DNA of 64,000 bases from Spirochaetota bacterium. GTDB taxonomy: Bacteria > Spirochaetota > UBA4802 > JAFGDQ01. The notes below the pieces were generated by a model that was given only the letters and a program-made list of their open reading frames with translations, did not search any database and had not been told where the DNA came from. A program made the position numbers and the translations under genes. Location of the stretch: the NCBI GenBank assembly GCA_043803405.1, contig JAZDKB010000009.1, positions 218,265-282,264 on the forward strand, given 5' to 3'. Below are positions 6,205-63,245 of this stretch, piece after piece (positions within the stretch are counted from its first letter, which is position 1; every line of letters begins with the position of its first letter).

Positions 6205-7692
6205 ATGACGGGGAAAACATATTATACTAATAATAAGCAAAATGATAACGGAATATACAATAATTCATTAAAAGCATTAACCGTTATATTAATTTTTTTT
6301 ATCTTTGTTATATCCTGTATAATAATAACCGGAAAAAAAAGCTTTGCAGAATCAAATATCAGTTATAACCAGAAAGGCAATTTTGAACTTGGCGGCAGTT
6401 TTGGGACGCCATCTGGTTTGAATGCAAGATACTGGTTTACAAATAAGTACGGCCTGGATGTGAATGCAGGTGTTTCGCTCGACAAGCAACCTGTATTCAC
6501 TTTTGACTTCTTAGTTGAAGATTACAAACTTTACAGATCGAGCACTTGGGAGTCCAGATTCTTTTACGGAGTGGGCGCGCTTTTCTCAAAAGAAGATGAC
6601 GAGTTCAAAAACAACCTGAGGGTCCCTTTAGGACTATCTTTTCCTATGCTTCAATATCCTATTACTTTTTCTTTTTATGTTGCTCCTGCGTTAGTACTAA
6701 ATCCAAAGTCCGAATTTGAAATGAACTGGGGGATAGGAGTAAGATATAATTTTTCAAGAGCTTCTGAAATACGGGAGAATCAATACAGACTTGAAAGAGA
6801 AGTAGGAAAGCTGGAAAGGGATGTTGAATCTCTTAAACATGGTCTGGATACTACTAAAGGGAAGCTTAGCGAGACAGAAGGAATGCTTTCCAGCACCAAG
6901 GGAAAACTTGCCGAGAAAGAAGGAGAGCTTAGCGCGACAAAAGGCAAAGTCGATGAACTGAGTCAAAGGCTTGGCGATCTGAAAGTTAAGCTCGATAAGA
7001 CCGCGACAGAACTTGATACTGCAAAAACGAAATTATCTTCAACAACCGTAGAACTCGCCAGCACAAAAAATCAGCTGGACGAAGTAAAAACCGAGCTAAA
7101 TAATACTAAAAAAAATCTGAACGAGAAGCAGACTGAATTAGCAAAAAAGCAGACTGAGCTTAATAATGCAAAAGTAATTATAGAAAATGCTTACACAGGG
7201 AAAAAGAAACAGGAAGAAGAAGAAAAAATCGCTTTAAGGCAAAAGGAACTAAATGAACAGGTAGTGCAATTAGATTCGCAAAAGAAATCATGGGAAAAAA
7301 TAAAAACAAAAGAAGCCCAAAAAAGAGAGGATTTAAAAAAGAAATGTGCGGAGAGAGGCGGCGTTATTGATGAATTCGGATATTGCACATGCCCGGAAAA
7401 CCAGGAATGGGATCCAAGAACGGATAAATGTGTATGCGTAAAAGGATATCAAAGAAATCTGCCGACCGAAAAATGCAAACCATGCGAAACAATAAAAGAA
7501 AGCGGCGCGTGCGCAGACGGCAATTGCGAAGATTACGAAGCAAAAGTTCAGTTAAAGACCGGAGCGCATAAATATATATGTGTTAAAAAATGCCGTAAAA
7601 ATAATGAAGCATGGTCAAAGAGAAAGAACGATTGCGTTTGCAGGGACGGCTATTACAGGGACGACAAAGGCGAATGCGTTAAGAGACAGTAA
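6205..7692 (+). CDS. exported protein: small OM beta-barrel-like domain + long coiled coil + Cys-rich C-terminal repeats
   Basis: GGAGG RBS before ATG 6205; hydrophobic leader; amphipathic strands ending WGIGVRYNF; heptad repeats (TKGKLSE/TKGKLAE/TKNQLDE); CxC-containing repeats. Confidence 0.7.
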   Translation: MTGKTYYTNNKQNDNGIYNNSLKALTVILIFFIFVISCIIITGKKSFAESNISYNQKGNFELGGSFGTPSGLNARYWFTNKYGLDVNAGVSLDKQPVFTFDFLVEDYKLYRSSTWESRFFYGVGALFSKEDDEFKNNLRVPLGLSFPMLQYPITFSFYVAPALVLNPKSEFEMNWGIGVRYNFSRASEIRENQYRLEREVGKLERDVESLKHGLDTTKGKLSETEGMLSSTKGKLAEKEGELSATKGKVDELSQRLGDLKVKLDKTATELDTAKTKLSSTTVELASTKNQLDEVKTELNNTKKNLNEKQTELAKKQTELNNAKVIIENAYTGKKKQEEEEKIALRQKELNEQVVQLDSQKKSWEKIKTKEAQKREDLKKKCAERGGVIDEFGYCTCPENQEWDPRTDKCVCVKGYQRNLPTEKCKPCETIKESGACADGNCEDYEAKVQLKTGAHKYICVKKCRKNNEAWSKRKNDCVCRDGYYRDDKGECVKRQ

Positions 7693-50357: not shown

Positions 50358-50933
50358 ATGCTAAACACTCTACACACTGATGTATTAGTATTAAATTCAG
50401 GCTTCATCCCTATCCGGATTACCACTGCAAGGGACGCTGTATGTCTGCTGACGGCAGATAAAGCCGTTTCCGTTCTTGAAAGCGACAGCTATGTACGCTC
50501 ACCATCAATAACCATCAGAATACCTTCTGTCATATCAATTCTCGGATACAATGATCTGCCGAAAAAGAAAGTCGTTTTTTCCAAGCTGAATATAATATAC
50601 AGGGACGATATGACATGCCAGTTCTGCAATAAAAGATTTTCGGTTAGAGACCTGACTATTGATCATGTGATACCAGGCAGCAGGTGGCAGGAAATTACAG
50701 GTAAAAGTTTAATCCATGGGTATTCCACATGGGAAAATATGGTATGCGCGTGCAGGTGGTGCAATAACAGGAAAGGAAATAAACTGCTTAAAGAACTAGG
50801 TTGGTCGCTAAAGACGATCCCTGTTGAACCGAAATATATGCCTCATATTATCCTGTCTTTTGAGAAAGCCAAAAGCAAAGGCTGGCTTCCGTTCTGCGGA
50901 TTTAACGTAAAACTTATAAAGCTTATCGCGTAA
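50358..50933 (+). CDS. HNH endonuclease (McrA-like)
   Basis: VLVLN, PSVI, RD..TCQFC, LTIDHVIP, WENMVCAC..CNNRKG. Confidence 0.9.
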   Translation: MLNTLHTDVLVLNSGFIPIRITTARDAVCLLTADKAVSVLESDSYVRSPSITIRIPSVISILGYNDLPKKKVVFSKLNIIYRDDMTCQFCNKRFSVRDLTIDHVIPGSRWQEITGKSLIHGYSTWENMVCACRWCNNRKGNKLLKELGWSLKTIPVEPKYMPHIILSFEKAKSKGWLPFCGFNVKLIKLIA

Positions 50934-51138
50934 TCGTTCTTTGTACGCTAAATCGCTGATTTAGCGCCTTTCTCAGTAAATCAAAAACAATACTTATTAT
51001 TCTTTGTGCATACATGTCCGGATTGCGCGGCTGAACGTAAGCGCGCAGACATTGCTTATCCAGCCTGCGATAAAACACAACACTGCCGATGCGCCCGCTT
51101 ATTTCGCTGAATACCGGGTTTAGATCTGCTATTGCCAT
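50923..51138 (-). CDS. short hypothetical ORF, possibly a truncated remnant
   Basis: ISGRIGSVVFYRR...LRAYVQPRNP resembles the N-terminus of longer uncharacterised proteins; the tail overlaps the HNH gene. Confidence 0.4.
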   Translation of the reverse strand: MAIADLNPVFSEISGRIGSVVFYRRLDKQCLRAYVQPRNPDMYAQRIISIVFDLLRKALNQRFSVQRTITR

Positions 51139-51360
51139 TTAAATTTTCCCTTTATACTGTTAAAGTACCTTTAATATAAATAATTCTTATTAATATAACA
51201 TAAATTTTTATTTTCGTAAATAGTTTTATTAGTTATTATAATTTTTTATAATAAATATCTAATATTAATATTGACTTAATTTAATAGTTTATTTTAATTT
51301 TTACTATTCCCTGCTCTTCATGGTTCACACTGATTACTTATACTTTTAATTAAAAAACAT

Positions 51361-52362
51361 ATGAATGATCAATTGACTGAATCACGCGCATTTAAAATTC
51401 CAAATGACGCAAATCTGCTGGAAAGGATGAGGCTTAATATCCGCACAATGCATTACAGTTATAGAACGGAAACGACGTATGTGCACTGGATAAAGCGCTT
51501 TATACTTTACCACAATAAAAGACATCCGAAAGATATGGCAGATAAAGAGATCGCTGAATTTTTAACGCATCTTGCAGTAGATGGCAAGGTATCGGCCTCA
51601 ACTCAGAACCAGGCTATGTGCGCTATTATCTTCCTTTATAAACACATTATTCAAAAAGATATTGGGGAGATAAGCGGATTTGTGTGGGCCAAAAAGCCGA
51701 AAAAAATACCTGTGGTGTTTACCCGCAATGAAGTAAAATCAGTTCTCGGAGAATTATCCGGCAATTACAGGATAATGGCAAGCATGCTTTACGGCGCCGG
51801 GCTGCGGCTGATGGAATGCCTGCGGCTGCGTGTTATGGATATTGTATTTGAAAATTCGCAATTATTTGTGCGCGACGGCAAAGGGCAAAAAGACAGGGTA
51901 ACGCCCTTGCCGGAAATAATTAAGGCTGATTTAAAGAAGCATTTGATTAAAATAAAAGAGCTGCACAACAAAGATTTGAAAGAAGGCTTTGGGGAGGTTT
52001 ATCTTCCATTTGCACTTGAAAGGAAATATCCGAACGCAAAGAAAGAATGGGCATGGCAATATGTGTTCCCTTCATCCAGAATATCCGCGGACCCGAAAAC
52101 CGGAATTATGCGCAGGCATCACCTTGACGAGAGCGTTTTGCAGAAAGCGGTAAAGACTGCAATTATAAAAGCAGGAGTACACAAACATGCCGGCTGTCAT
52201 ACATTCCGGCATTCGTTTGCAACTCATTTACTGGAGGATGGCTATAATATACGCACTGTTCAGGATTTAATGGGTCACGAGGATTTGAATACGACTATGA
52301 TTTATACTCATGTTATGGATAAAGGAATAAACAGGGTTAAAAGCCCGGCAGATAAATTATAA
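51361..52362 (+). CDS. intI: integron integrase (tyrosine recombinase)
   Basis: HYSYRTE.TY..WI, VSASTQNQA, LYGAGLR, GKG.KDR, integron-specific insert VYLPFALERKYPNA..EW.WQYVFPS, HTFRHSFATHLL, MGH, TTMIYTH. Confidence 0.97.
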   Translation: MNDQLTESRAFKIPNDANLLERMRLNIRTMHYSYRTETTYVHWIKRFILYHNKRHPKDMADKEIAEFLTHLAVDGKVSASTQNQAMCAIIFLYKHIIQKDIGEISGFVWAKKPKKIPVVFTRNEVKSVLGELSGNYRIMASMLYGAGLRLMECLRLRVMDIVFENSQLFVRDGKGQKDRVTPLPEIIKADLKKHLIKIKELHNKDLKEGFGEVYLPFALERKYPNAKKEWAWQYVFPSSRISADPKTGIMRRHHLDESVLQKAVKTAIIKAGVHKHAGCHTFRHSFATHLLEDGYNIRTVQDLMGHEDLNTTMIYTHVMDKGINRVKSPADKL

Positions 52363-52369
52363 AATAATT

Positions 52370-52753
52370 ATGAAAATTAAAAGAAAACTAATACCCGGAG
52401 AACCGGGAACAAAGCGCTGGGTTGAAAAGTTCGGCAAAGATTTATTATGCATACGGTACAGATATGATGAGAATCAAAATATTAAATTAACTACTGCTGA
52501 AATAATAGTAAATAAAAATACCTGGGAACGAAATTCCAAAAAAATTCCCCCAAATAAGAAAATGAATATCCGTATTAATTATGAAGAGTCCAGGCTGGCA
52601 GGCATAGTTAAAGCAGCAGGCGGAAGATGGAACAGGCAAAAAAAGCTATGGGAACTTGCCTATAAAGAAGTATTAGCTCTTGGACTTGAAAAAAGGATTG
52701 TAAAATTATCTGATAAAAATAATAAATTCAATAATAAGACAGTAAATTTTTAA
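52370..52753 (+). CDS. basic 127-aa hypothetical protein immediately downstream of intI
   Basis: 7-bp gap after the intI stop; PGEPGTK...L.C.RYRYD and VKAAGGRWN...KLWEL motifs. Confidence 0.8.
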   Translation: MKIKRKLIPGEPGTKRWVEKFGKDLLCIRYRYDENQNIKLTTAEIIVNKNTWERNSKKIPPNKKMNIRINYEESRLAGIVKAAGGRWNRQKKLWELAYKEVLALGLEKRIVKLSDKNNKFNNKTVNF

Positions 52754-52754
52754 T

Positions 52755-52846
52755 ATGTCTATATTTAGACATTCTTTTGTGTCTAATACTAGACATTAGC
52801 ATTAGACATGTCTATGTTTAGACATTTTATGTCTATATATATACAT
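52755..52846. repeat. array of TGTCTA-N4-TAGACA palindromes upstream of attI
   Basis: Copies at 52756, 52780 and 52809, a degenerate copy at 52830, and an extra half-site TAGACA at 52803. Confidence 0.85.
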
Positions 52847-52863
52847 GTATGCGCAACAGAGAT

Positions 52864-52886
52864 TGCAGTATAAGAATATGTTAGGC
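52864..52886 (+). other. putative attI (core G/TTAGGC at 52880-52886)
   Basis: First GTTRRRY after intI; exact complement of GCCTAAC (58685) at the far end of cassette 1; no attC hairpin upstream. Confidence 0.75.
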
Positions 52887-52944: not shown

Positions 52945-55900
52945 ATGTCCTTAAACACAGCACATGAAGGATACGAGTATCAGGATTTATTAACAGCGTA
53001 TTTCATTCTTGATTGGATTCTTGAGGATGTTGAAAGCACTTTCTATATTGATAAAAAAGAATATGATTCTGATAAATTTGATGACTTAACAATTAAGAAT
53101 GATAAAGGTTCCTTTAAAAGACAAATAAAATATAGCAATCTGGAAAGTAACCATTCATTAACAAAAAAGGATTTATCTACAGATAGCTCATATAATTTAG
53201 CAATTGATGAATTATTTACATCATGGCATAATTACCCAGATAAAAATAGTTTAGATGTTAGACTCTGTTTAGCTTGGAATGAACCTGAAGATGATTTATT
53301 AGATGTATTAGAAATAGCTTCGAAGCAAAAAACATTTATTAATCATAACACCTTTCTACATAAAATAAACCCTCATAAATTATGGCCAGAAAATCAAAAA
53401 CCTATTGATACTTGGAGAAGATTCAAAGCTAAATCTGAAAACATTAACCGAGATGATTTTATTGGCTTTTGCAATGTTTTTCTAATTGAAACAAATTTTC
53501 CTAAATTTAGTTTAAATATTGATGAACCAGATAAATTAGAAAAAATTATTTTAGATCAGGTAGACCGTTTAGGCATTGGTATTTTCCCGAACAATAAAAG
53601 AAGTAAAGAGGAGTTTATTCTTTCATTAACTTCCTTAATAAGGAATTCAAGAAGTAAAGGAACTCCCATTACTACTAAAGATATTTTTAAACGATTTGAA
53701 ATAGTCACTGATTTTGGTTCTATTGAGCAAAATTTTCCAATTGATGAAAGTAAAAATATACTTCTTCATGAAAATATCTCATCTTTTATTCAAATAATTA
53801 AACTTAATAAAAAAATAATATTAACAGGAGAACCGGGTAGTGGCAAATCTTGGTTTATTAATAATCTAATTAATGAACTTAAATCAAACAATATCAATGT
53901 AATCCGTCATTATTGTTACACTGACCTTCAAGATAAATTTCAAAAAGATAGAATTCGGAGAGACATTTTTTATGGCAATCTTATTTCTGATACTCTTGCT
54001 TTATATCCTGATCTAATAAGGAAAAAACAGCAAAGATATGCAAGTAACCTAACCGAATTAAATCTGCTAATAAATAATATTGATGAACCAACTATATTGA
54101 TAATTGATGGTCTTGACCATATTCAAAGAATTTTTAATTATAGGCCATATCATGATCTTACTTTAAGTGATATAGATATAGTTAATGAAATAAATAATAT
54201 TAACACTTCTGAAAATTTATTTATCATTGTAGCATCACAACCAATTCAAGAATTAGAAAATATAAAAGAATTTTTTCAAATTTCTTTGCCTTCTTGGACT
54301 ATTGATAATGTAAAAGATTTAATGATTAAACTTTTTCTTGATGATTTGGAGATAGATGAACAAGTTTTATCTGATGTTTTATTTGAAAAAAGTTCTGGGA
54401 ATCCATTATATTTAACATATTTAATTCAGGAACTGAAAACAAAACCTGAAATTACTTTAGATATAATTAATACCCTTCCACCATACTCATATAATTTAAT
54501 AGAATATTATAATTATCTATTATCAAAACTTAATTTAAAAGAAAATGTCCCATTAGTTTTATCAGCAGTTAATTTCAATCTTACAAAACATGAATTAAAA
54601 CAAATTACAGGTCTTGGGGATTTTGTAGATGAATCTTTAAATTTATTAAAACCAGTATTAAAGCAAAATAAAACAAGTAGTGGTTATAGTATTTATCATG
54701 AAAGTTTTCGAAGATTTATTATAGAATATTTAAAATCAAAAGATATTATTGAAGAAAAAATATTTAGACCAGTAATTGACTGGCTTGAAAGTTTAGATTT
54801 TTATACATACCCCAAAGCATATCGATATTATTTACAGTTATTAATAGATAGTGGTGATTCTTTAAAACCTTTAAAATTTATCTCAAAAGATTTTATAAAA
54901 AATTGTGTATATTTTGGACATCCCTGGGAAATTATTGAGAACAATTATTATTTTTTAACCGTAGCTGGGACAGAGTCAGAAGATATTGAAAAAATTATCC
55001 TTCTTAATGAAATAAACAAAACTTTAATAGGGATAAAGGAAGAATATAATGATTATTTTTTATTTTATATTGAAGCATTCGGGCACAATAAAGATTTTGA
55101 ATCTGTTGCGAATTTCTTAGTATTTGAAGGCAATCCTACTTTAGAAAAAAAGCAAGGAATAAGAGTTTGTTATTTAATAGATTCAAATAATAAAGTAGCT
55201 CCTTGGGAATATTATTCTGATTATTTTAAGGAGGGCGAATCTATTGAGTTGGATGATTTCAAATATTATGTTCGGCTATTACTAGTTCAAAATGAAAAAG
55301 AGGCATTAAAAAATATTGCTAAAAATATCAAATCAGGAAATTTAAATGATTTTAGAACCATTTATAAAAATGAATTATCTCGGTATCAAAACATTGATTT
55401 TGTTAATGAATTAAAAAATGAAAATACTATTGTAAATGAATTAATTACTGATGAGATAAATAAAGAGGTTGATAAACAAGATTTAATAAAATTAGCAGAA
55501 GAAATTTTATCTTTTGAAAATGTATTTGATACAGAAGTACCTAAAATTCAAAACTTTTTTAAACAGATTGTAAATCAAATTATAGATAATGATACCATCT
55601 CTAAAGTAATATCGCTATTTTCTGGAATTAATTGGTTTTACAATTGGCTAATTTATTATATTAAGATTCAACAAATTAAATCATCTCAAATAATAAATTC
55701 GGATAAACTCAGATCAGCTTTTGACTTCTTAGCATACAAGACAGAACCGTTTGAGGGTAAGCCAAGAACTTGCGATTTATATTCATTAAATACTTTTATT
55801 TACAACTCATTAAATGATGGACTTTCTTTAATTAAAGATAAAAACGACTGGGAATATATTTTAAAAATATTAGAAAAGGTTAGCACTGAGACAACAACTT

Positions 55901-58602
55901 ATCTATCAAAGTCACCTGGTGGACCAATAGCAACATATAACTTTTTTAAACTTCTTGTTGAAAGCATTAATGAATATAATGCAACTATAGTTAATAAAAT
56001 ATTAGAGAAACAATATGAGGATAAAAAAAGTGATCAGTTTCATGCATATCTTTCTGAATATTGTTTTCAACTAGTCAAAACCTTTGCTTTCATAAATAAT
56101 ATAGAAAAAAGCGACTTTTATTTTAAACTCGGAGTCGATTATTTAGTTGGATATACTTGGCGTCGCGATTTAACCATAGAAGACTTAACTGAAAGTATTG
56201 CTAATTTACATCTTATTAATAATACGCTTGGAAACGAATATATACTAAAGTTGAAAGATTTAGTAGATGCAGTTGTTGAACATACTGATGGAAAGGATAC
56301 AAGGCATTTCCCAATTGAATGGTTTGAGAAATTTTATAGTATAAATCCTGAAAGTGCTTCTCGTTATCTTCTAAAAGAATTGGTCGAGACAAGATGCGAT
56401 TGGAGACTTGAATCATCATTACAGCATTTAATAATGCAATTAAACGTTAAAATTGACTCATTAACTAAATCCTTTCTTAATCAAACATTTTTAATTGAAT
56501 CAGCTGATTCATTCTTACTAGATTCGTTAAGATTATTTGACGAATTAGCTAACCCAACTGCTAAACATACTTTAATTGCTTCAATCGAAGCTAGAATATT
56601 AATAAAACAAAGTTCTGGATATTCTAAAGAACTTCAGAGAGAGCTTTTAAAGCATTCAAAAGAACTAAATTTAGCAGAAGATTATTTTTCTATTCATTCA
56701 ATAATAAATAATAAAAAGACTAATTCTATAAATTTAATAGAAAAGTTAAAAAAAGAATGCATTACTCGAAAGTCGTTCTCCGAAATGAGTACTTCTGAAT
56801 TATTAACGTATTTAAAAGACAATTCAGTTTCAGAAAGAGAAATTCAGTCGTTGGTATATGTATTTGATAATTTTCAAACTTTAAACATTGAATTAAAAGA
56901 TTTAATAAAACATTTAATAATTAAGAATGAAAAATATCCCAACGAAATAAAAATAGATTTAACACCTATATTTATTACTGAAACTGATGTATCAATATAT
57001 TTCTGGATAACTCGATTTATTTATCAAAAGAGTGGATGGCTTGAGAGTCTATTTAATATTGATGCATTTAAAACCGCTTATAAGATTAATCCTGAAAAAA
57101 GTTTAAAATATTTATTTGAGTTATTACCTGATAGTTTGAATTTAGGATATACTCGTACATTTTCTGCCAATTTATTTAATGCCTTATCAAGTGTTGGTTA
57201 TAATTCTTCAATACTTATTAAAGCATGGCTTTCTATGTATGAAATTATTGAATCAAGACTTCCATCAAGGGATATATATAATTGGGAAGCAGCATTTTCA
57301 GATGAATTAGGCATGAATTTAGATGAAATACATATCTGCCTTTTAATATGTAGATTTAAATCTTATACAGTCCAAAAATTTCAGATTGTTTTAACCGGTA
57401 TTGCAATTCTATTGTATAGTGATTCACAAAAACTAATAAAACCGTTAAAATGGTTTTTTAGAAATCATGAGTACTTTAAAAAGTCCATAATCCTGGTAAT
57501 TATAGAATTATTATCATTACACGAAGAAAAAAATGTTGGTTATGTAAAAAATTTTGAATCAGAGCTAAGAAATATTTATCCAACAGAGTATTTCTTAATT
57601 GATTATTTAATAGAATCATTATTTAACTTATCCAATCGTTTAAAAATAAAATTAAATAACGAATTAATATACCCTATTCCGGATGAAGAGGCAGATTTTT
57701 TCTTAAGATTAAATTATCGGCATCGCATCTTAGAAAGAAAGGGATTAAACATTAATAATATCTTTGGGAAATTTAAGGCGACATTTTCTAGAAAGTATAA
57801 AGAAGCTCTTGATCTGTATGGGAATAGAATGCGTGAGTGGTCAGTAAATAACCTTTATTTTTCAGACTATTTACTTGAATTGATTAATGAAGATTTCTAT
57901 AATGCTTTTAAAAGTTATCCTGATTCTAATTTAGTTTATAATGACATTAAGATCGATATTAAAACTATAATTGCTCAGTATTTATCTTTAAATACTAGGC
58001 CTAAAGATTTAAAAAAATATTCAGAATATGAGGGAAATGGTTTATATACTTCCACTTCAGAAATCTCAATTAATGAAGGATGGGTAAGAATAGGTCATTT
58101 TGAAAATGAATTAGTTGAAAAAGAACATTATAAACTCGAAAACTATAAAATATTTGGTGGAATAACTTTTAATTCTGATAATAAACCAATTTTTCCATTC
58201 TCTACTTATCGTTTGGACATGCCTAAAATATGGGAAAATATTTACCCTGATTATGAAAATCAAGAAACAATTGTATTTTCCTTAATTCAAAAGCAATTTC
58301 AATTTGAAGATTTCAAAATACTTTGGTTAAATCCTATTTTAGTTTCTAACTTTAAACTTAATGTTTGCAATTTTTTGTCAGGCTTACGGGCCACTAACGA
58401 TAATGGAGAAATTATTTTAAAATTTAATTCATGGTATACTAGCTATATTGCTTCCGATCGTATGGATGATATTATACAAGAAATACCAAAATTAGATGGT
58501 TCTGAATTATTAATACGCGAAGATTACTTTAAGAAAATTTGTGATTTATATAGTGTATCCCCTAAATATTGTATTATGCGTACGTTTAAAAATTCATCAT
58601 AA
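52945..58602 (+). CDS. cassette 1: PD-(D/E)xK nuclease + STAND NTPase + long helical sensor region (Avs/AVAST-like antiphage protein)
   Basis: GYEYQD...FDD...QIK nuclease motif, Walker A GEPGSGKS, Walker B LIIDGLD, GNPLYL; 1885 aa; AT-rich. Confidence 0.8.
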   Translation: MSLNTAHEGYEYQDLLTAYFILDWILEDVESTFYIDKKEYDSDKFDDLTIKNDKGSFKRQIKYSNLESNHSLTKKDLSTDSSYNLAIDELFTSWHNYPDKNSLDVRLCLAWNEPEDDLLDVLEIASKQKTFINHNTFLHKINPHKLWPENQKPIDTWRRFKAKSENINRDDFIGFCNVFLIETNFPKFSLNIDEPDKLEKIILDQVDRLGIGIFPNNKRSKEEFILSLTSLIRNSRSKGTPITTKDIFKRFEIVTDFGSIEQNFPIDESKNILLHENISSFIQIIKLNKKIILTGEPGSGKSWFINNLINELKSNNINVIRHYCYTDLQDKFQKDRIRRDIFYGNLISDTLALYPDLIRKKQQRYASNLTELNLLINNIDEPTILIIDGLDHIQRIFNYRPYHDLTLSDIDIVNEINNINTSENLFIIVASQPIQELENIKEFFQISLPSWTIDNVKDLMIKLFLDDLEIDEQVLSDVLFEKSSGNPLYLTYLIQELKTKPEITLDIINTLPPYSYNLIEYYNYLLSKLNLKENVPLVLSAVNFNLTKHELKQITGLGDFVDESLNLLKPVLKQNKTSSGYSIYHESFRRFIIEYLKSKDIIEEKIFRPVIDWLESLDFYTYPKAYRYYLQLLIDSGDSLKPLKFISKDFIKNCVYFGHPWEIIENNYYFLTVAGTESEDIEKIILLNEINKTLIGIKEEYNDYFLFYIEAFGHNKDFESVANFLVFEGNPTLEKKQGIRVCYLIDSNNKVAPWEYYSDYFKEGESIELDDFKYYVRLLLVQNEKEALKNIAKNIKSGNLNDFRTIYKNELSRYQNIDFVNELKNENTIVNELITDEINKEVDKQDLIKLAEEILSFENVFDTEVPKIQNFFKQIVNQIIDNDTISKVISLFSGINWFYNWLIYYIKIQQIKSSQIINSDKLRSAFDFLAYKTEPFEGKPRTCDLYSLNTFIYNSLNDGLSLIKDKNDWEYILKILEKVSTETTTYLSKSPGGPIATYNFFKLLVESINEYNATIVNKILEKQYEDKKSDQFHAYLSEYCFQLVKTFAFINNIEKSDFYFKLGVDYLVGYTWRRDLTIEDLTESIANLHLINNTLGNEYILKLKDLVDAVVEHTDGKDTRHFPIEWFEKFYSINPESASRYLLKELVETRCDWRLESSLQHLIMQLNVKIDSLTKSFLNQTFLIESADSFLLDSLRLFDELANPTAKHTLIASIEARILIKQSSGYSKELQRELLKHSKELNLAEDYFSIHSIINNKKTNSINLIEKLKKECITRKSFSEMSTSELLTYLKDNSVSEREIQSLVYVFDNFQTLNIELKDLIKHLIIKNEKYPNEIKIDLTPIFITETDVSIYFWITRFIYQKSGWLESLFNIDAFKTAYKINPEKSLKYLFELLPDSLNLGYTRTFSANLFNALSSVGYNSSILIKAWLSMYEIIESRLPSRDIYNWEAAFSDELGMNLDEIHICLLICRFKSYTVQKFQIVLTGIAILLYSDSQKLIKPLKWFFRNHEYFKKSIILVIIELLSLHEEKNVGYVKNFESELRNIYPTEYFLIDYLIESLFNLSNRLKIKLNNELIYPIPDEEADFFLRLNYRHRILERKGLNINNIFGKFKATFSRKYKEALDLYGNRMREWSVNNLYFSDYLLELINEDFYNAFKSYPDSNLVYNDIKIDIKTIIAQYLSLNTRPKDLKKYSEYEGNGLYTSTSEISINEGWVRIGHFENELVEKEHYKLENYKIFGGITFNSDNKPIFPFSTYRLDMPKIWENIYPDYENQETIVFSLIQKQFQFEDFKILWLNPILVSNFKLNVCNFLSGLRATNDNGEIILKFNSWYTSYIASDRMDDIIQEIPKLDGSELLIREDYFKKICDLYSVSPKYCIMRTFKNSS

Positions 58603-58684: not shown

Positions 58685-58706
58685 GCCTAACAATAAAATC
58701 GAGCCA
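58685..58706 (+). other. attC1 left arm (R''/L''), interrupted by the intron
   Basis: GCCTAAC AATAAAATCGAGCCA pairs with the arm at 60886-60989 once the intron is removed. Confidence 0.8.
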
Positions 58707-60885
58707 TTGAGCCATGAGTCGTTTAGAGTCAATTGTTAACCCTGCGAGAGCAGAGAGTTAACCTGTCGTACTGCCGACAGTTTCTCACCTGCCGAGAGGC
58801 AGTGCAATGTAGCCCTTGCCCGATATAATCGGACAAAAGAGCGAAGCGCGAGCGGAACTCAATTCCCGTTAGTACCATACGGGAGGGGAGCTAAGAATGA
58901 TGATACGGTTAAGATATATGAATTGCCGATAAACGCCGTTAATTTTAACAAGCGAAAGGATACTGAATGCTTAAAAGCATAAACGCTTGAACCAAAAGGT
59001 AAGGGGTATGGATGGGATGGTGGGCTTTCGTCCTACGCAGACAACAATTCCCCCGGCGAACAGGTAGAACCTAAGTCATCAAGTTGAGTTAAAGGACTAT
59101 GGAAACCCCGACTGCCTCCACAGGAAGTGGAAAGCGAGCAGTAATGCGAGCCGATAGGCAAGCGGAGGAAGTGATGTCGGAAAAAGCGAAAGCCGTTCTG
59201 TAATGGAGCGGATACGGGTTCAAGATTTGCCCGACTCGAAAGAGGGCAGACATCCGACGGGTGCTGGATCACGGGAGAGATTTTGGAAAAGATGAAATCG
59301 GAAAGGCGTGGATAGACGATGGTTGGAATACTGACCATTGACAGCCCAAAGAGCGATAGTGAGTGCTGGAAACATATTGACTGGAAGAAAGCGGAAGCTA
59401 TTGTTAATCGGATTCAAGTCAGGATCGTGAAGGCAATCAAGGCAGGGAACAAGAATAAAGTACGTAGCTTACAGCGACTCCTTGCCAGATCATTTGCAGC
59501 AAAGTTAAAAGCTGTTAAGCGAATAATATCAAATCGTGGAAGAAATACAGCGGGAGTAGACGGAGTAAAGTGGAACACACCCGCGAAACGTTGGAAAGCA
59601 GTCGAAGAGATAAATCGTAAGGACTACAAGCCGCAGCCCTTAAAACGTAAATATATACCGAAGTCAAATGGCAAGAAACGACCTTTAAGTATACCTGTTA
59701 TGGCAGACCGGGCAGAACAGGCACTTGAACAATCAGGGCTTGATCCGATAAGCGAATACACAGCGGATAAACATTCATATGGTTTTCGCAAGAAACGGTC
59801 AGTACATGACGCGATCGGCGCTTGTTACAATGCCTTAAGAAAGAAAGGAAGCGCAGACTGGATACTTGAAGGAGATATAAAAGGCTGTTTTGACAATTTT
59901 GATCATCAGTGGATGCTGGAAAATATCCCGATGAACAAGAACAAATTAAGGATGTGGCTTAAAGCCGGATACATGGAAGAAGGGAGTTATTACCCTACTC
60001 CAACAGGAACGCCGCAAGGAGGAATAATATCACCGATACTGGCGAACATGGTTTTAGATGGACTGGAAACTTTTTTAGCAAAGCATTTCAAAAAGAGAGA
60101 TAAAGTACACTTTATCAGGTTTGCCGATGACTTTGTTATCACAGGTGCAACTAAAAGAATTTTGGAAGATAAAGTCATGCCATTGGTGAAGGAATTCCTA
60201 AGAGTACGCGGGCTTGAATTATCAGAAACGAAAACGAAGATATCACATATAAATGATGGATTCGATTTTCTTGGATTCTCTGTTAAGAAATACAAAGGGA
60301 AACTTTTGATAAAACCGGCAAAGTCTAAAGTAGACGGGTTTATTGAAAAGATCAGACAAATAATAAAGTCTAACAAAAGTGTAAAGACCCGGAGTCTGAT
60401 CTATCAGTTAAATCCAGTAATACGAGGATGGGGATATTTCTATCGGCACGTGGTAAGCAGTCAAATATTTGGTGAACTGGATCATCGGATATGGGAAACC
60501 ACATGGCAATGGGCAAAGAGAAGACATCCGAACAAAGGTAAACAGTGGATCAAACGGAAATATTACCAGCATGAAGGAAACAGAAACTGGATTTTCCGTG
60601 AGAAGAATGACAAGATGAGTCTTCTCTTACTGTCGAAAATTCACATCATCCGACATGTTAAGATACAATCCAACGCCAATCCTTATGATCCGGATTGGGA
60701 CGAATATTTCAAGAGTAGATCTCTGAGACAGAAAGGAATCTTCGATCAGAGACTAGCGACAGCGATTTGATAAGATTGCCGGGTGTTTAACGATGCCTTA
60801 GCCAGGGCTTGAGCCGTACCTTTGGAAACAAGGTTGTACGGTTCTTAGGGGGCGACGGTGCGGTAACGCACCTGACCTACCCGGA
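58707..60885 (+). mobile_element. group II intron (IIB, CL-type RT without En domain) inserted in attC1; boundaries may be off by 1 nt
   Basis: Domain V GAGCCGTAC-CTTTG-GAAA-CAAGG-TT-GTACGGTTC (60811-60844); domain VI with bulged A at 60879; RT ORF inside; removal restores an attC. Confidence 0.88.
59319..60770 (+). CDS. ltrA: group II intron reverse transcriptase/maturase
   Basis: RVT_N-type WKHIDW...R.Q.RI.KA, IPK.NGK.RPL.IP, EGDIKGCFD, GTPQGGIISP, RFADDF, GFDFLG, X domain LNPVIRGW; no HNH. Confidence 0.93.
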   Translation: MVGILTIDSPKSDSECWKHIDWKKAEAIVNRIQVRIVKAIKAGNKNKVRSLQRLLARSFAAKLKAVKRIISNRGRNTAGVDGVKWNTPAKRWKAVEEINRKDYKPQPLKRKYIPKSNGKKRPLSIPVMADRAEQALEQSGLDPISEYTADKHSYGFRKKRSVHDAIGACYNALRKKGSADWILEGDIKGCFDNFDHQWMLENIPMNKNKLRMWLKAGYMEEGSYYPTPTGTPQGGIISPILANMVLDGLETFLAKHFKKRDKVHFIRFADDFVITGATKRILEDKVMPLVKEFLRVRGLELSETKTKISHINDGFDFLGFSVKKYKGKLLIKPAKSKVDGFIEKIRQIIKSNKSVKTRSLIYQLNPVIRGWGYFYRHVVSSQIFGELDHRIWETTWQWAKRRHPNKGKQWIKRKYYQHEGNRNWIFREKNDKMSLLLLSKIHIIRHVKIQSNANPYDPDWDEYFKSRSLRQKGIFDQRLATAI

Positions 60886-60989
60886 GATGCGAACCGCAAT
60901 CAAGCGACATTTTTATTGTGCCCCTAATATCGCGCTCAATTTTTCGGAAGTCGGCGTCGCGGTTCGCACTGCTCATTTTGTCGTTAGAA
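60886..60989 (+). other. attC1 remainder, ending in R' GTTAGAA
   Basis: TGCGAACCGC...GCGGTTCGCA CTG CTC ATTTT GTC GTTAGAA. Confidence 0.8.
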
Positions 60990-61441: not shown

Positions 61442-61572
61442 TTCTAACATTGGCTGCAGCCTGATTTTTACTCGCGTTTTTTTGTTTAAGTATGTGAATG
61501 CAAGTTGTAAGTCGTAATGTTTTTGAATACCTTTGCTAGTACCCGTAAAAACAGCTGAGCCTTTAGTTAGGT
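61442..61572 (+). other. attC2 (131 bp)
   Basis: TTCTAAC...GTTAGGT; arms GGCT-g-CAG-c-CTG-a-TTTTTAC / GTAAAAA-CAG-CTG-AGCC. Confidence 0.9.
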
Positions 61573-63112: not shown

Positions 63113-63245
63113 ACCTAACATTTGTTCCAGTCTGATTCTTGCTCGCGTTTTTTCTGTTTCAATCAGTCAATGCGAGTTTTAAAATCAGTTAGTTTTTGAA
63201 TGCCGTTGCCAGTACCCGCAAGAACAGCTGAACATTTAGTTAGAT
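63113..63245 (+). other. attC3 (133 bp)
   Basis: ACCTAAC...GTTAGAT; arms TGTT-c-CAG-t-CTG-a-TTCTTGC / GCAAGAA-CAG-CTG-AACA; clearly homologous to attC2. Confidence 0.9.

Follow-up and report, generated by a model that had tools for sequence, protein, structure and literature searches.

The integron platform, as it is commonly taught, consists of three parts: intI, attI and Pc. Architectural proteins acting on accessory DNA beside a tyrosine-recombinase core are familiar from lambda, where Xis and IHF fill this role. Accessory DNA adjoins a tyrosine-recombinase core in the Xer sites cer and psi (with PepA and ArgR or ArcA) and in the TnpI IRS as well, and the architectural proteins of these systems are reported to impose selectivity. 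Among integrons, the nearest counterpart is attI1, whose accessory sites DR1 and DR2 lie beside the core and are described as favouring attI x attC recombination (PMC8946536, PMC8876359). These are core-like direct repeats bound by IntI1, and attI1 is reported to use extra IntI sites (PMC3146285, PMC8946536). One review suggests that DR1 and DR2 may act as topological filters, and describes attI x attC recombination in a chromosomal integron as needing accessory factors that are still unknown (PMC8946536). Class 1 integrons also carry a short ORF in the attI leader, ORF-11 or ORF-17, of which ORF-11 is described as working by translational coupling and as tolerating residue changes (PMC8946536, PMC8876359). 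For most integrons, attI itself is reported to be unknown (PMC4889954).

Against this background we describe a real, conserved and apparently undescribed variant of the integron platform. It came to light in the window, by which we mean the whole 64,000-nucleotide stretch of Spirochaetota DNA that was analysed and to whose first letter all coordinates below refer unless a locus of another genome is named. As judged from its sequence, the locus is a complete co-oriented integron. Like classical integrons and the co-oriented "inverted" integrons reported from Treponema (PMC4889954, PMC3607928), it has a true IntI, an attI simple site, attC-bounded cassettes and an intI that reads toward attI; unlike the classical platform, it belongs to a type with an extra conserved gene and an array of 3-6 dyads upstream of attI. 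The integrase gene, taken from the list of open reading frames (51361..52362, forward strand), matches TIGR02249 at 453.6 bits against a cut-off of 265 (E 3.7e-136) and is co-oriented with the cassettes, an arrangement also called the "reverse" layout. The initial annotation had noted a 127-aa ORF 7 bp after intI, and the coordinates bear this out: the companion ORF occupies 52370..52753 on the forward strand, its first base 7 bp past the intI stop at 52362.

The three perfect palindromes, degenerate fourth and extra half-site reported at the same time are likewise all in place. Perfect copies of TGTCTA-N4-TAGACA lie at 52756..52771 (dyad 1), 52780..52795 (dyad 2) and 52809..52824 (dyad 3), a fourth copy with one mismatch lies at 52830..52845 (dyad 4), and a spare TAGACA half-site on the forward strand (52803..52808) touches dyad 3. 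The array had been said to end about 35 bp before the crossover G/TTAGGC, and the distance from its end at 52845 to the G at 52880 is indeed 35 bp. This G belongs to a putative attI simple site (52866..52886, forward strand) with an L box at about 52868-52873 and the crossover G|TTAGGC at 52880, which scores 12.4 bits on an attI motif learned from relatives. Support for a crossover at 52880 comes from the exact complement of GTTAGGC, GCCTAAC, which ends cassette 1 (58685-58691), and from attC hairpins downstream. Measured from the crossover G, the centre of dyad 4 lies at 42.5 bp, within the distance class seen most often among relatives; the weight matrix itself chose a weaker site overlapping dyad 4, at 34.5 bp. 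Perfect N4 dyads number 4 in the 3.98-Mb genome, 3 of them in this 70-bp stretch, with about 0.05 expected. When up to 2 mismatches are allowed, the count for the whole window is 5, which was matched by 2 of 100 shuffles; the signal in the window is the clustering of perfect copies, not the mismatch-tolerant count.

A family profile built from 20 close relatives of the 127-aa ORF retrieved 1,451 clusters at 50% identity (E <= 1e-10), and residues R29 and E44 are invariant among 112 aligned members. A 9-residue pattern run over GTDB species genomes yielded 532 confirmed loci, and the best 80 of these 532 were analysed. Their record titles name Calditrichaceae, KSB1, Acidobacteriota, Chloroflexi, Nitrospirota, Rhodothermales, delta-, gamma- and betaproteobacteria and others, and the companion ORF heads cassette arrays in this set. 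That the ORF represents a conserved integron-linked family, as first proposed, stands. The accompanying idea that it is confined to the interval between a co-oriented intI and attI does not, as the ORF is also found divergent from, upstream of or convergent on intI, and an intI or intI fragment is present in the fetched flank of 41 of these best 80 loci and lacking from that of the other 39. Among 93 ORF loci, the co-oriented order of intI followed by the ORF accounts for 25; intI is divergent in 18, follows the ORF in 4, is distant in 4 and is not adjacent in 42. A later sample added 2 loci in which the ORF converges on intI, both of them array-less. In a sample of the window's phylum, 30 of 301 genomes had intI and 3 had the companion ORF. 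The companion module is optional and no obligate cofactor, because the same IntI can have an array-less attI adjoining it.

Individual loci show further arrangements. In a locus of the same genus as the window (L005 / L175, G108:C33:33360-36337) two intI genes stand back to back, and one of them leads, by eye, into the ORF, a variant form of the dyad array and then a first cassette of HigBA-like type. In three loci with the companion ORF ahead of intI (L019, at 6411-6595, L020 and L026), the stretch from intI to the array contains another short ORF, some 50 codons long and similar among the three. The integrase gene is fragmented or internally deleted in L006, L010, L011, L014, L015, L024, L029 and L040, which keep the ORF and mostly the array and attI too. 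A second, more distant tyrosine recombinase lies within about 1-2 kb of intI in the metagenome loci L090, L103, L114, L123, L136, L140 and L200.

The companion protein falls into no family above its cut-off, with no NCBIfam match, no informative PHROG and no sequence match among solved structures; viral contigs gave only 2 partial matches. DUF5710 (PF18974) matches the window protein below threshold (16.5 bits, cut-off 26.5, E 0.007) and passes its cut-off in 1 of 149 relatives, with sub-threshold matches to the C-terminal domain in many, and Arm-DNA-bind_5 matches weakly in 2 of 149 proteins. To our knowledge DUF5710 has no assigned function; it may resemble HARP domains. In the full-text literature searched we found no description of the companion gene and array, and a prior mention is possible in subscription journals and supplements, which lie outside that scope. 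The pair matches none of DR1/DR2, ORF-11/ORF-17 or the known host factors. DR1 and DR2 are core-like and direct, whereas the companion sites are symmetric dyads unlike the core; and although the ORF resembles ORF-11 and ORF-17 as a short ORF ahead of attI, it encodes a folded two-domain family with invariant residues.

How closely the dyads belong to the ORF was assessed with a motif learned by palindromic EM from 76 training loci with per-locus backgrounds. The motif is an 18-20-bp dyad, roughly gtWtCTA-N4-TAGaWac, represented by about 263 sites, and each locus has its own variant. Among loci with at least 150 bp downstream, which are mostly training loci, ORFs followed by at least 3 sites make up 22 of 24 in the co-oriented layout, 12 of 18 in the divergent one, 4 of 4 where intI is distant and 28 of 38 where it is lacking. 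An independent test gathered integrases irrespective of the ORF and held ORF-less controls to at least 500 bp on both sides. Of 15 held-out ORF-bearing integrons (one being that of the window, and 2 contig-end loci having been dropped), 13 have the array, as against 0 of 57 well-covered ORF-less integrons with closely related IntI; the 57 are quoted because the wider 117-locus control includes short contigs, one with an ORF start at its end (L201/L229). Across many phyla, homologous loci do have a palindrome array at attI together with the ORF. An extra sample from Chloroflexota, the phylum of an Anaerolineales genome, had the array in 0 of 14 ORF-less loci, 10 of them well covered. Counting against generality, 0 of its 4 ORF-bearing loci reached the array threshold, 2 having degenerate dyads and 2, with convergent ORFs, having none. 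Pooled, the held-out loci give 13 of 19 ORF-bearing against 0 of 67 well-covered ORF-less. A motif-free repeat test exceeded all shuffles in 45 of 69 ORF-bearing and 4 of 57 ORF-less loci.

On the IntI tree, the array occurs in 20 of 27 training ORF-bearing loci, and a scored array is missing in 9 of all 42 ORF-bearing integrons; one locus (L004) has the ORF and attI with the array absent. ORF-bearing and ORF-less integrases are interleaved, with 8 state changes. Phylogenetically independent pairs number only 5, on average 4.2 concordant and 0 opposite (p ~0.125). In the sequences compared, an array of 18-20-bp dyads goes with the ORF and sits just upstream of attI.

The dyads have the character of a double-stranded operator pattern, because their arms do not compensate for each other (1,427 of 1,939 pairs complementary, versus 1,443 of 1,939 after reshuffling within the locus; p 0.95) and their mismatches are balanced between G-T (108) and A-C (121). 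For the same reasons, including the lack of G-U bias, we discarded the reading of the dyads as RNA or single-stranded DNA hairpins. At their centre, 85% of 277 sites have the dinucleotide AT or TA. Intervals between sites (n=240) are 20-21 bp in 91 cases and 24-25 bp in 46, the shorter spacing being also the closest packing possible for 18-20-bp repeats. Where the ORF precedes intI, the array is found beyond intI, next to attI, in 3 of 3 loci with sequence there; going by these loci, the array follows attI when the ORF moves. In 69 loci, the distance from the last dyad centre to the crossover G is 22.5-24.5 bp in 9, 30.5-34.5 bp in 24 and 41.5-44.5 bp in 27, classes that are in part classes of lineage. 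Manual removal of 12 loci, one as a duplicate and the others for weak attI calls, left 57, among which kin are not independent; their distances concentrate at a period of 9.5-10.5 bp (R ~0.7).

Structure prediction offers a candidate partner for such sites. AlphaFold models the companion protein as two small beta-alpha-beta-beta domains (pLDDT 93, pTM 0.62), a predicted N-terminal dimerising ribbon, in which R29, T42 and E44 are listed as invariant, and a C-terminal DUF5710-like domain. The homodimer model scores 0.63 against 0.00 for the best control, with contact agreement between runs of at least 89% and pLDDT of at least 82; the mark set for this score was reached by 20 of 30 solved homodimers and by 1 of 23 monomers. 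In the modelled interface, residues 36-52 pair in antiparallel fashion around the invariant E44. The model supports self-association as a homodimer and therefore fits a dyad site. No fold match was obtained at Foldseek E <= 0.001 or VIA Z >= 5, which does not make the fold new, and the HARP and Arm-DNA-binding families are absent from the fold-search lists. The top viral matches in Foldseek are DUF5710 proteins (probability up to 0.98, E 0.02), to which the C-terminal domain is similar; here it is fused to a different N-terminal domain.

The N-terminal domain weakly resembles the DNA-kinking ribbon of NrdR. Foldseek gives this comparison a probability of 0.44-0.51 (E 2.4-4.1), Atlas a TM of 0.59, VIA a Z of 2.1-2.9 over 34-35 residues, which is below unrelated rows, and HHalign a probability of 15% (E 0.0017), with 0 of 100 column shuffles as high; the alignment sets VRYRY...R-x-x-TVE of the companion against IRRRR...RFTxYE of NrdR. 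NrdR ribbon pairs are reported to bind a 16-bp palindrome with conserved G-C pairs 9 positions apart and to kink the DNA by about 90 degrees at A/T bases (PMC9110341). Unlike NrdR, the companion protein is without the zinc-binding cysteine pairs (two CxxC knuckles) and without a PF22811 match, its family conserves one Cys against four in NrdR, it has an alpha/beta, DUF5710-like C-terminal domain in place of an ATP-cone, and its dyads are spaced 20-25 bp apart, compared with about 31-32 bp reported for NrdR sites (PMC12051234). The companion protein is not an NrdR, yet it may work like an NrdR ribbon.

The module also occurs away from any integrase gene. The intI-less set comprises 39 loci in 35 genomes (from the best 80 of the 532 loci), mostly metagenome bins, in which absence and duplication may be artefacts. 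An intI lies elsewhere in 21 of the 35 genomes; the other 14 bins, possibly incomplete, show none. The upstream neighbours of such modules are unrelated to each other and mostly housekeeping genes (41 scanned). Hairpins resembling attC lie downstream of 10 of the 18 modules with at least 1.5 kb of downstream sequence, and number 21 sites in 76 kb downstream against 8 strand counts in 135 kb upstream. Unlike CALINs, which are defined by attC sites only, intI-less modules keep a promoter and attI. At least two ORF matches were found in 18 of the 35 genomes, with up to 6 in one bin. In that six-copy bin, where no intI was detected, a promoter-like element and a dyad array are present in five of the copies, whose attI cores are near-identical; in the sixth, an inserted gene has done away with the attI.

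When the attI core of a remote module was compared by eye with the array-less attI beside intI in 7 genomes, 3 genomes had identical or nearly identical cores, 2 had cores that agree in part, and in the other 2 the cores differ. These sequences suggest that one IntI serves array-bearing and array-less attI sites in trans. The array would be unnecessary for core recognition, because an array-less attI with the same core adjoins intI in the same genome. In one genome, a 558-bp stretch that runs from the -10 box ahead of the ORF as far as the crossover of attI is duplicated at 99.6% identity (L047 4926-5483 and L235 9574-10131, G316), one copy with intI and the other without. Three damaged modules were seen among L254 (near 1764), L256 and L049. 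One has a 5'-deleted ORF and an intact array, attI and cassettes, which suggests that the companion protein is supplied in trans; in another, the cut in the ORF falls at a GTTAGG site close to codon 54; and in one the attI is replaced by a transposase-like gene inserted straight after the last dyad.

We favour the reading that the companion ORF encodes a dedicated architectural protein at attI that gates recombination, and give it an even chance of being correct. Its first element, that the companion protein binds the dyad array, is highly probable; the ORF product would be an integron-borne, sequence-specific DNA-binding dimer, with the dyads as its operators. The dyads would form an accessory region beside the attI core, like the accessory DNA of cer and psi or DR1/DR2 of attI1. 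One dimer would occupy each dyad through its joined antiparallel beta-sheet. That the bound dimer also kinks the DNA is a tentative proposal; the kink would probably fall at the central A/T step, in the fashion of NrdR ribbon pairs. With three to six dimers bound, phased relative to one another as well as to the crossover, the attI synapse would then be shaped or gated. The most likely effect would be that attI x attC insertion is favoured and that attI x attI recombination or attI-driven loss is suppressed, the direction being a guess. One integrase could thereby serve several dispersed promoter-ORF-array-attI "satellite" platforms, and a filter that prefers attI x attC to attI x attI would account for the frequency of multi-attI genomes in this set.

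Given binding, we consider action on recombination rather than on transcription fairly likely, because it is to the crossover, and not to a promoter or the ORF, that the array is linked in position and phase. By analogy, the accessory-site role has precedents in DR1/DR2 of attI1 and in the Xer accessory sites. The likeness to the Xer, TnpI and lambda factors would be one of role, as no homology to them was found and, unlike them, the companion factor is encoded inside the platform. Taken to its full extent, the proposal describes a widespread fourth integron component, a zinc-free NrdR-like kinking dimer that the platform itself encodes, that wraps the phased array into a topological filter and that lets one integrase run a network of integrase-free satellites, each equipped with a promoter, attI and cassettes of its own, without attI x attI rearrangement; in this extended form we think it less likely than not to hold.

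The best-surviving alternative, which we nevertheless judge unlikely, is transcriptional control, in which the protein on the dyads sets cassette expression and the bound array acts either as a roadblock that can be tuned or as the site of an activator serving a promoter at attI. The gene might then be the first cistron of the Pc transcript, with release by a signal sensed by the DUF5710-like domain. Several observations speak for such a role. Modules without intI open, by eye, with a sigma70-like promoter upstream of the ORF (a TTG-rich -35, 17 bp, TATACT), and in the co-oriented, divergent and ORF-first layouts alike the ORF is directed toward the cassettes. Between sister loci without intI, purifying selection acts on the ORF (dN/dS 0.05-0.30), and it does so in modules of the 14 of 35 possibly incomplete bins that show no intI. 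NrdR, the nearest fold lead, is a repressor, and the class with 42-43 bp from dyad to crossover resembles what we take to be a class II activator position. However, the array keeps phase with the crossover and goes where attI goes rather than following the promoter or the ORF, no conserved -10 hexamer stands beside the array in the attI motif, and a consensus scan for Pc found promoter-like matches near chance in the window region (14 versus 11.0 +/- 3.1). A related candidate, the array as a built-in sigma70 promoter, was rejected: the -35 and -10 elements overlap only at the window's 29-bp spacing, and their counts are near chance.

The copies beside unrelated housekeeping genes, the presence of up to 6 in one genome bin and the 558-bp duplicate, which runs from promoter to crossover, could also be taken to mean that promoter, ORF and array are a selfish or mobilising unit (iteron-, centromere- or end-binding) that copies attI and has no recombination role once placed. 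We regard this as improbable. Profile searches found no nuclease, transposase or replication-protein match for the companion protein, and a plasmid search gave no match. The left ends of the copies have the look of a conserved promoter, gene conversion can account for chimeric copies, and duplicates within a bin may be strain mixtures.

It is more improbable still that the dyads are extra IntI sites equivalent to DR1/DR2, with the ORF a linked passenger. The half-site TAGACA does resemble part of the core GTTAGAC, and attI1 provides the precedent, but the array is missing from all 57 ORF-less integrons with closely related IntI, and a single IntI in a single genome can have both array-less and array-bearing attI sites. 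Co-variation points the same way. As the initial annotation had anticipated, the array varies with the ORF: motif distance follows ORF distance after correction for IntI and GC (partial r 0.21, p 0.002, n=26), an association that may come from the physical linkage of the two, and does not follow IntI distance (r -0.01). Of the ORF columns, residue 5, which belongs to the first strand, predicts dyad position 4 best: over 35 representatives its AMI is 0.33, and the highest value among 60 permutations was 0.25. Leu at this residue pairs with A at that position in 8 of 8 cases. The early distinction between the array and direct repeats of the attI1 type also withstood analysis, in that the family motif consists of symmetric dyads without GTT and upstream of ORF-linked attI core-like heptamers show no enrichment (0.71 versus 0.60 shuffled).

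ORF-less sites tend to have core-like repeats instead, which we count in favour of a role of the array in recombination. At least 2 occur upstream in 9 of 31 ORF-less attI versus 9 of 59 (p 0.004 on the excess over shuffles, for a pattern picked post hoc). ORF-less attI of Chloroflexota type (L326, L328, L334, L335, L336 and L341) have several core-like inverted repeats upstream, distinct from the companion motif, which are possibly an IntI-bound accessory region.

An NrdR box derived from RNR promoters shares with the dyads the core C-x-A-N4-T-x-G (r 0.54, p 0.059), the flanks being anti-correlated (r -0.53); on the NrdR weight matrix, integron dyads have a median of -8.3 bits, with 1.8% above 7 bits, and a de novo search around nrdR genes yielded no box. 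That a host regulator (NrdR, LexA or CRP) binds the array, with the ORF incidental, is very improbable despite this shared core, since the flanks disagree, few dyads reach the score of an NrdR box, nrdR went undetected in the genome of the window and in 9 of 35 genomes that bear the module, and the array depends on the ORF; host NrdR in particular is unlikely as the binder.

The accessory-factor question raised for chromosomal integrons becomes directly testable, because the family offers an integron-encoded candidate protein together with predicted sites. The companion ORF is also a marker by which attI can be located in many uncultured lineages. Some cassette arrays that seem to be orphans retain a promoter and an attI, and gene capture by means of a distant integrase may still be open to them. 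Should the protein filter or boost insertion, it would be useful for integron-based cloning.

The cassettes of the window have features of their own. The gene of cassette 1 (52945..58602, forward strand) encodes an 1885-aa STAND/NACHT-like NTPase with AAA_22, NPHP3_N, nSTAND3 and NACHT matches, and a weak match to Avs1b far below cut-off; on these matches it is likely an AVAST-like or AVAST-type anti-phage candidate. At 5.7 kb, the cassette is unusually large. Its attC (58685..60989, forward strand, arms by eye) is split by a group II intron with an RF02012 match at 58762-58890, RVT_1 and GIIM matches and an intact RT gene at 59319-60770, the intron ends being inferred. Intron and cassettes share one strand. 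The IIC-attC introns described so far are directed to the bottom strand. Introns of the IIB class have already been reported in integrons (PMC7923331). A hairpin scan places the attC sites of cassettes 2 and 3 at 61442..61572 and 63113..63245, both on the forward strand and both of repeat family D2/D7. Ahead of the platform, the tract at 51140-51360 is very A+T-rich, as is the region upstream of the ORF in locus L004, and a 71-aa ORF lies near this tract on the minus strand (50923-51138).
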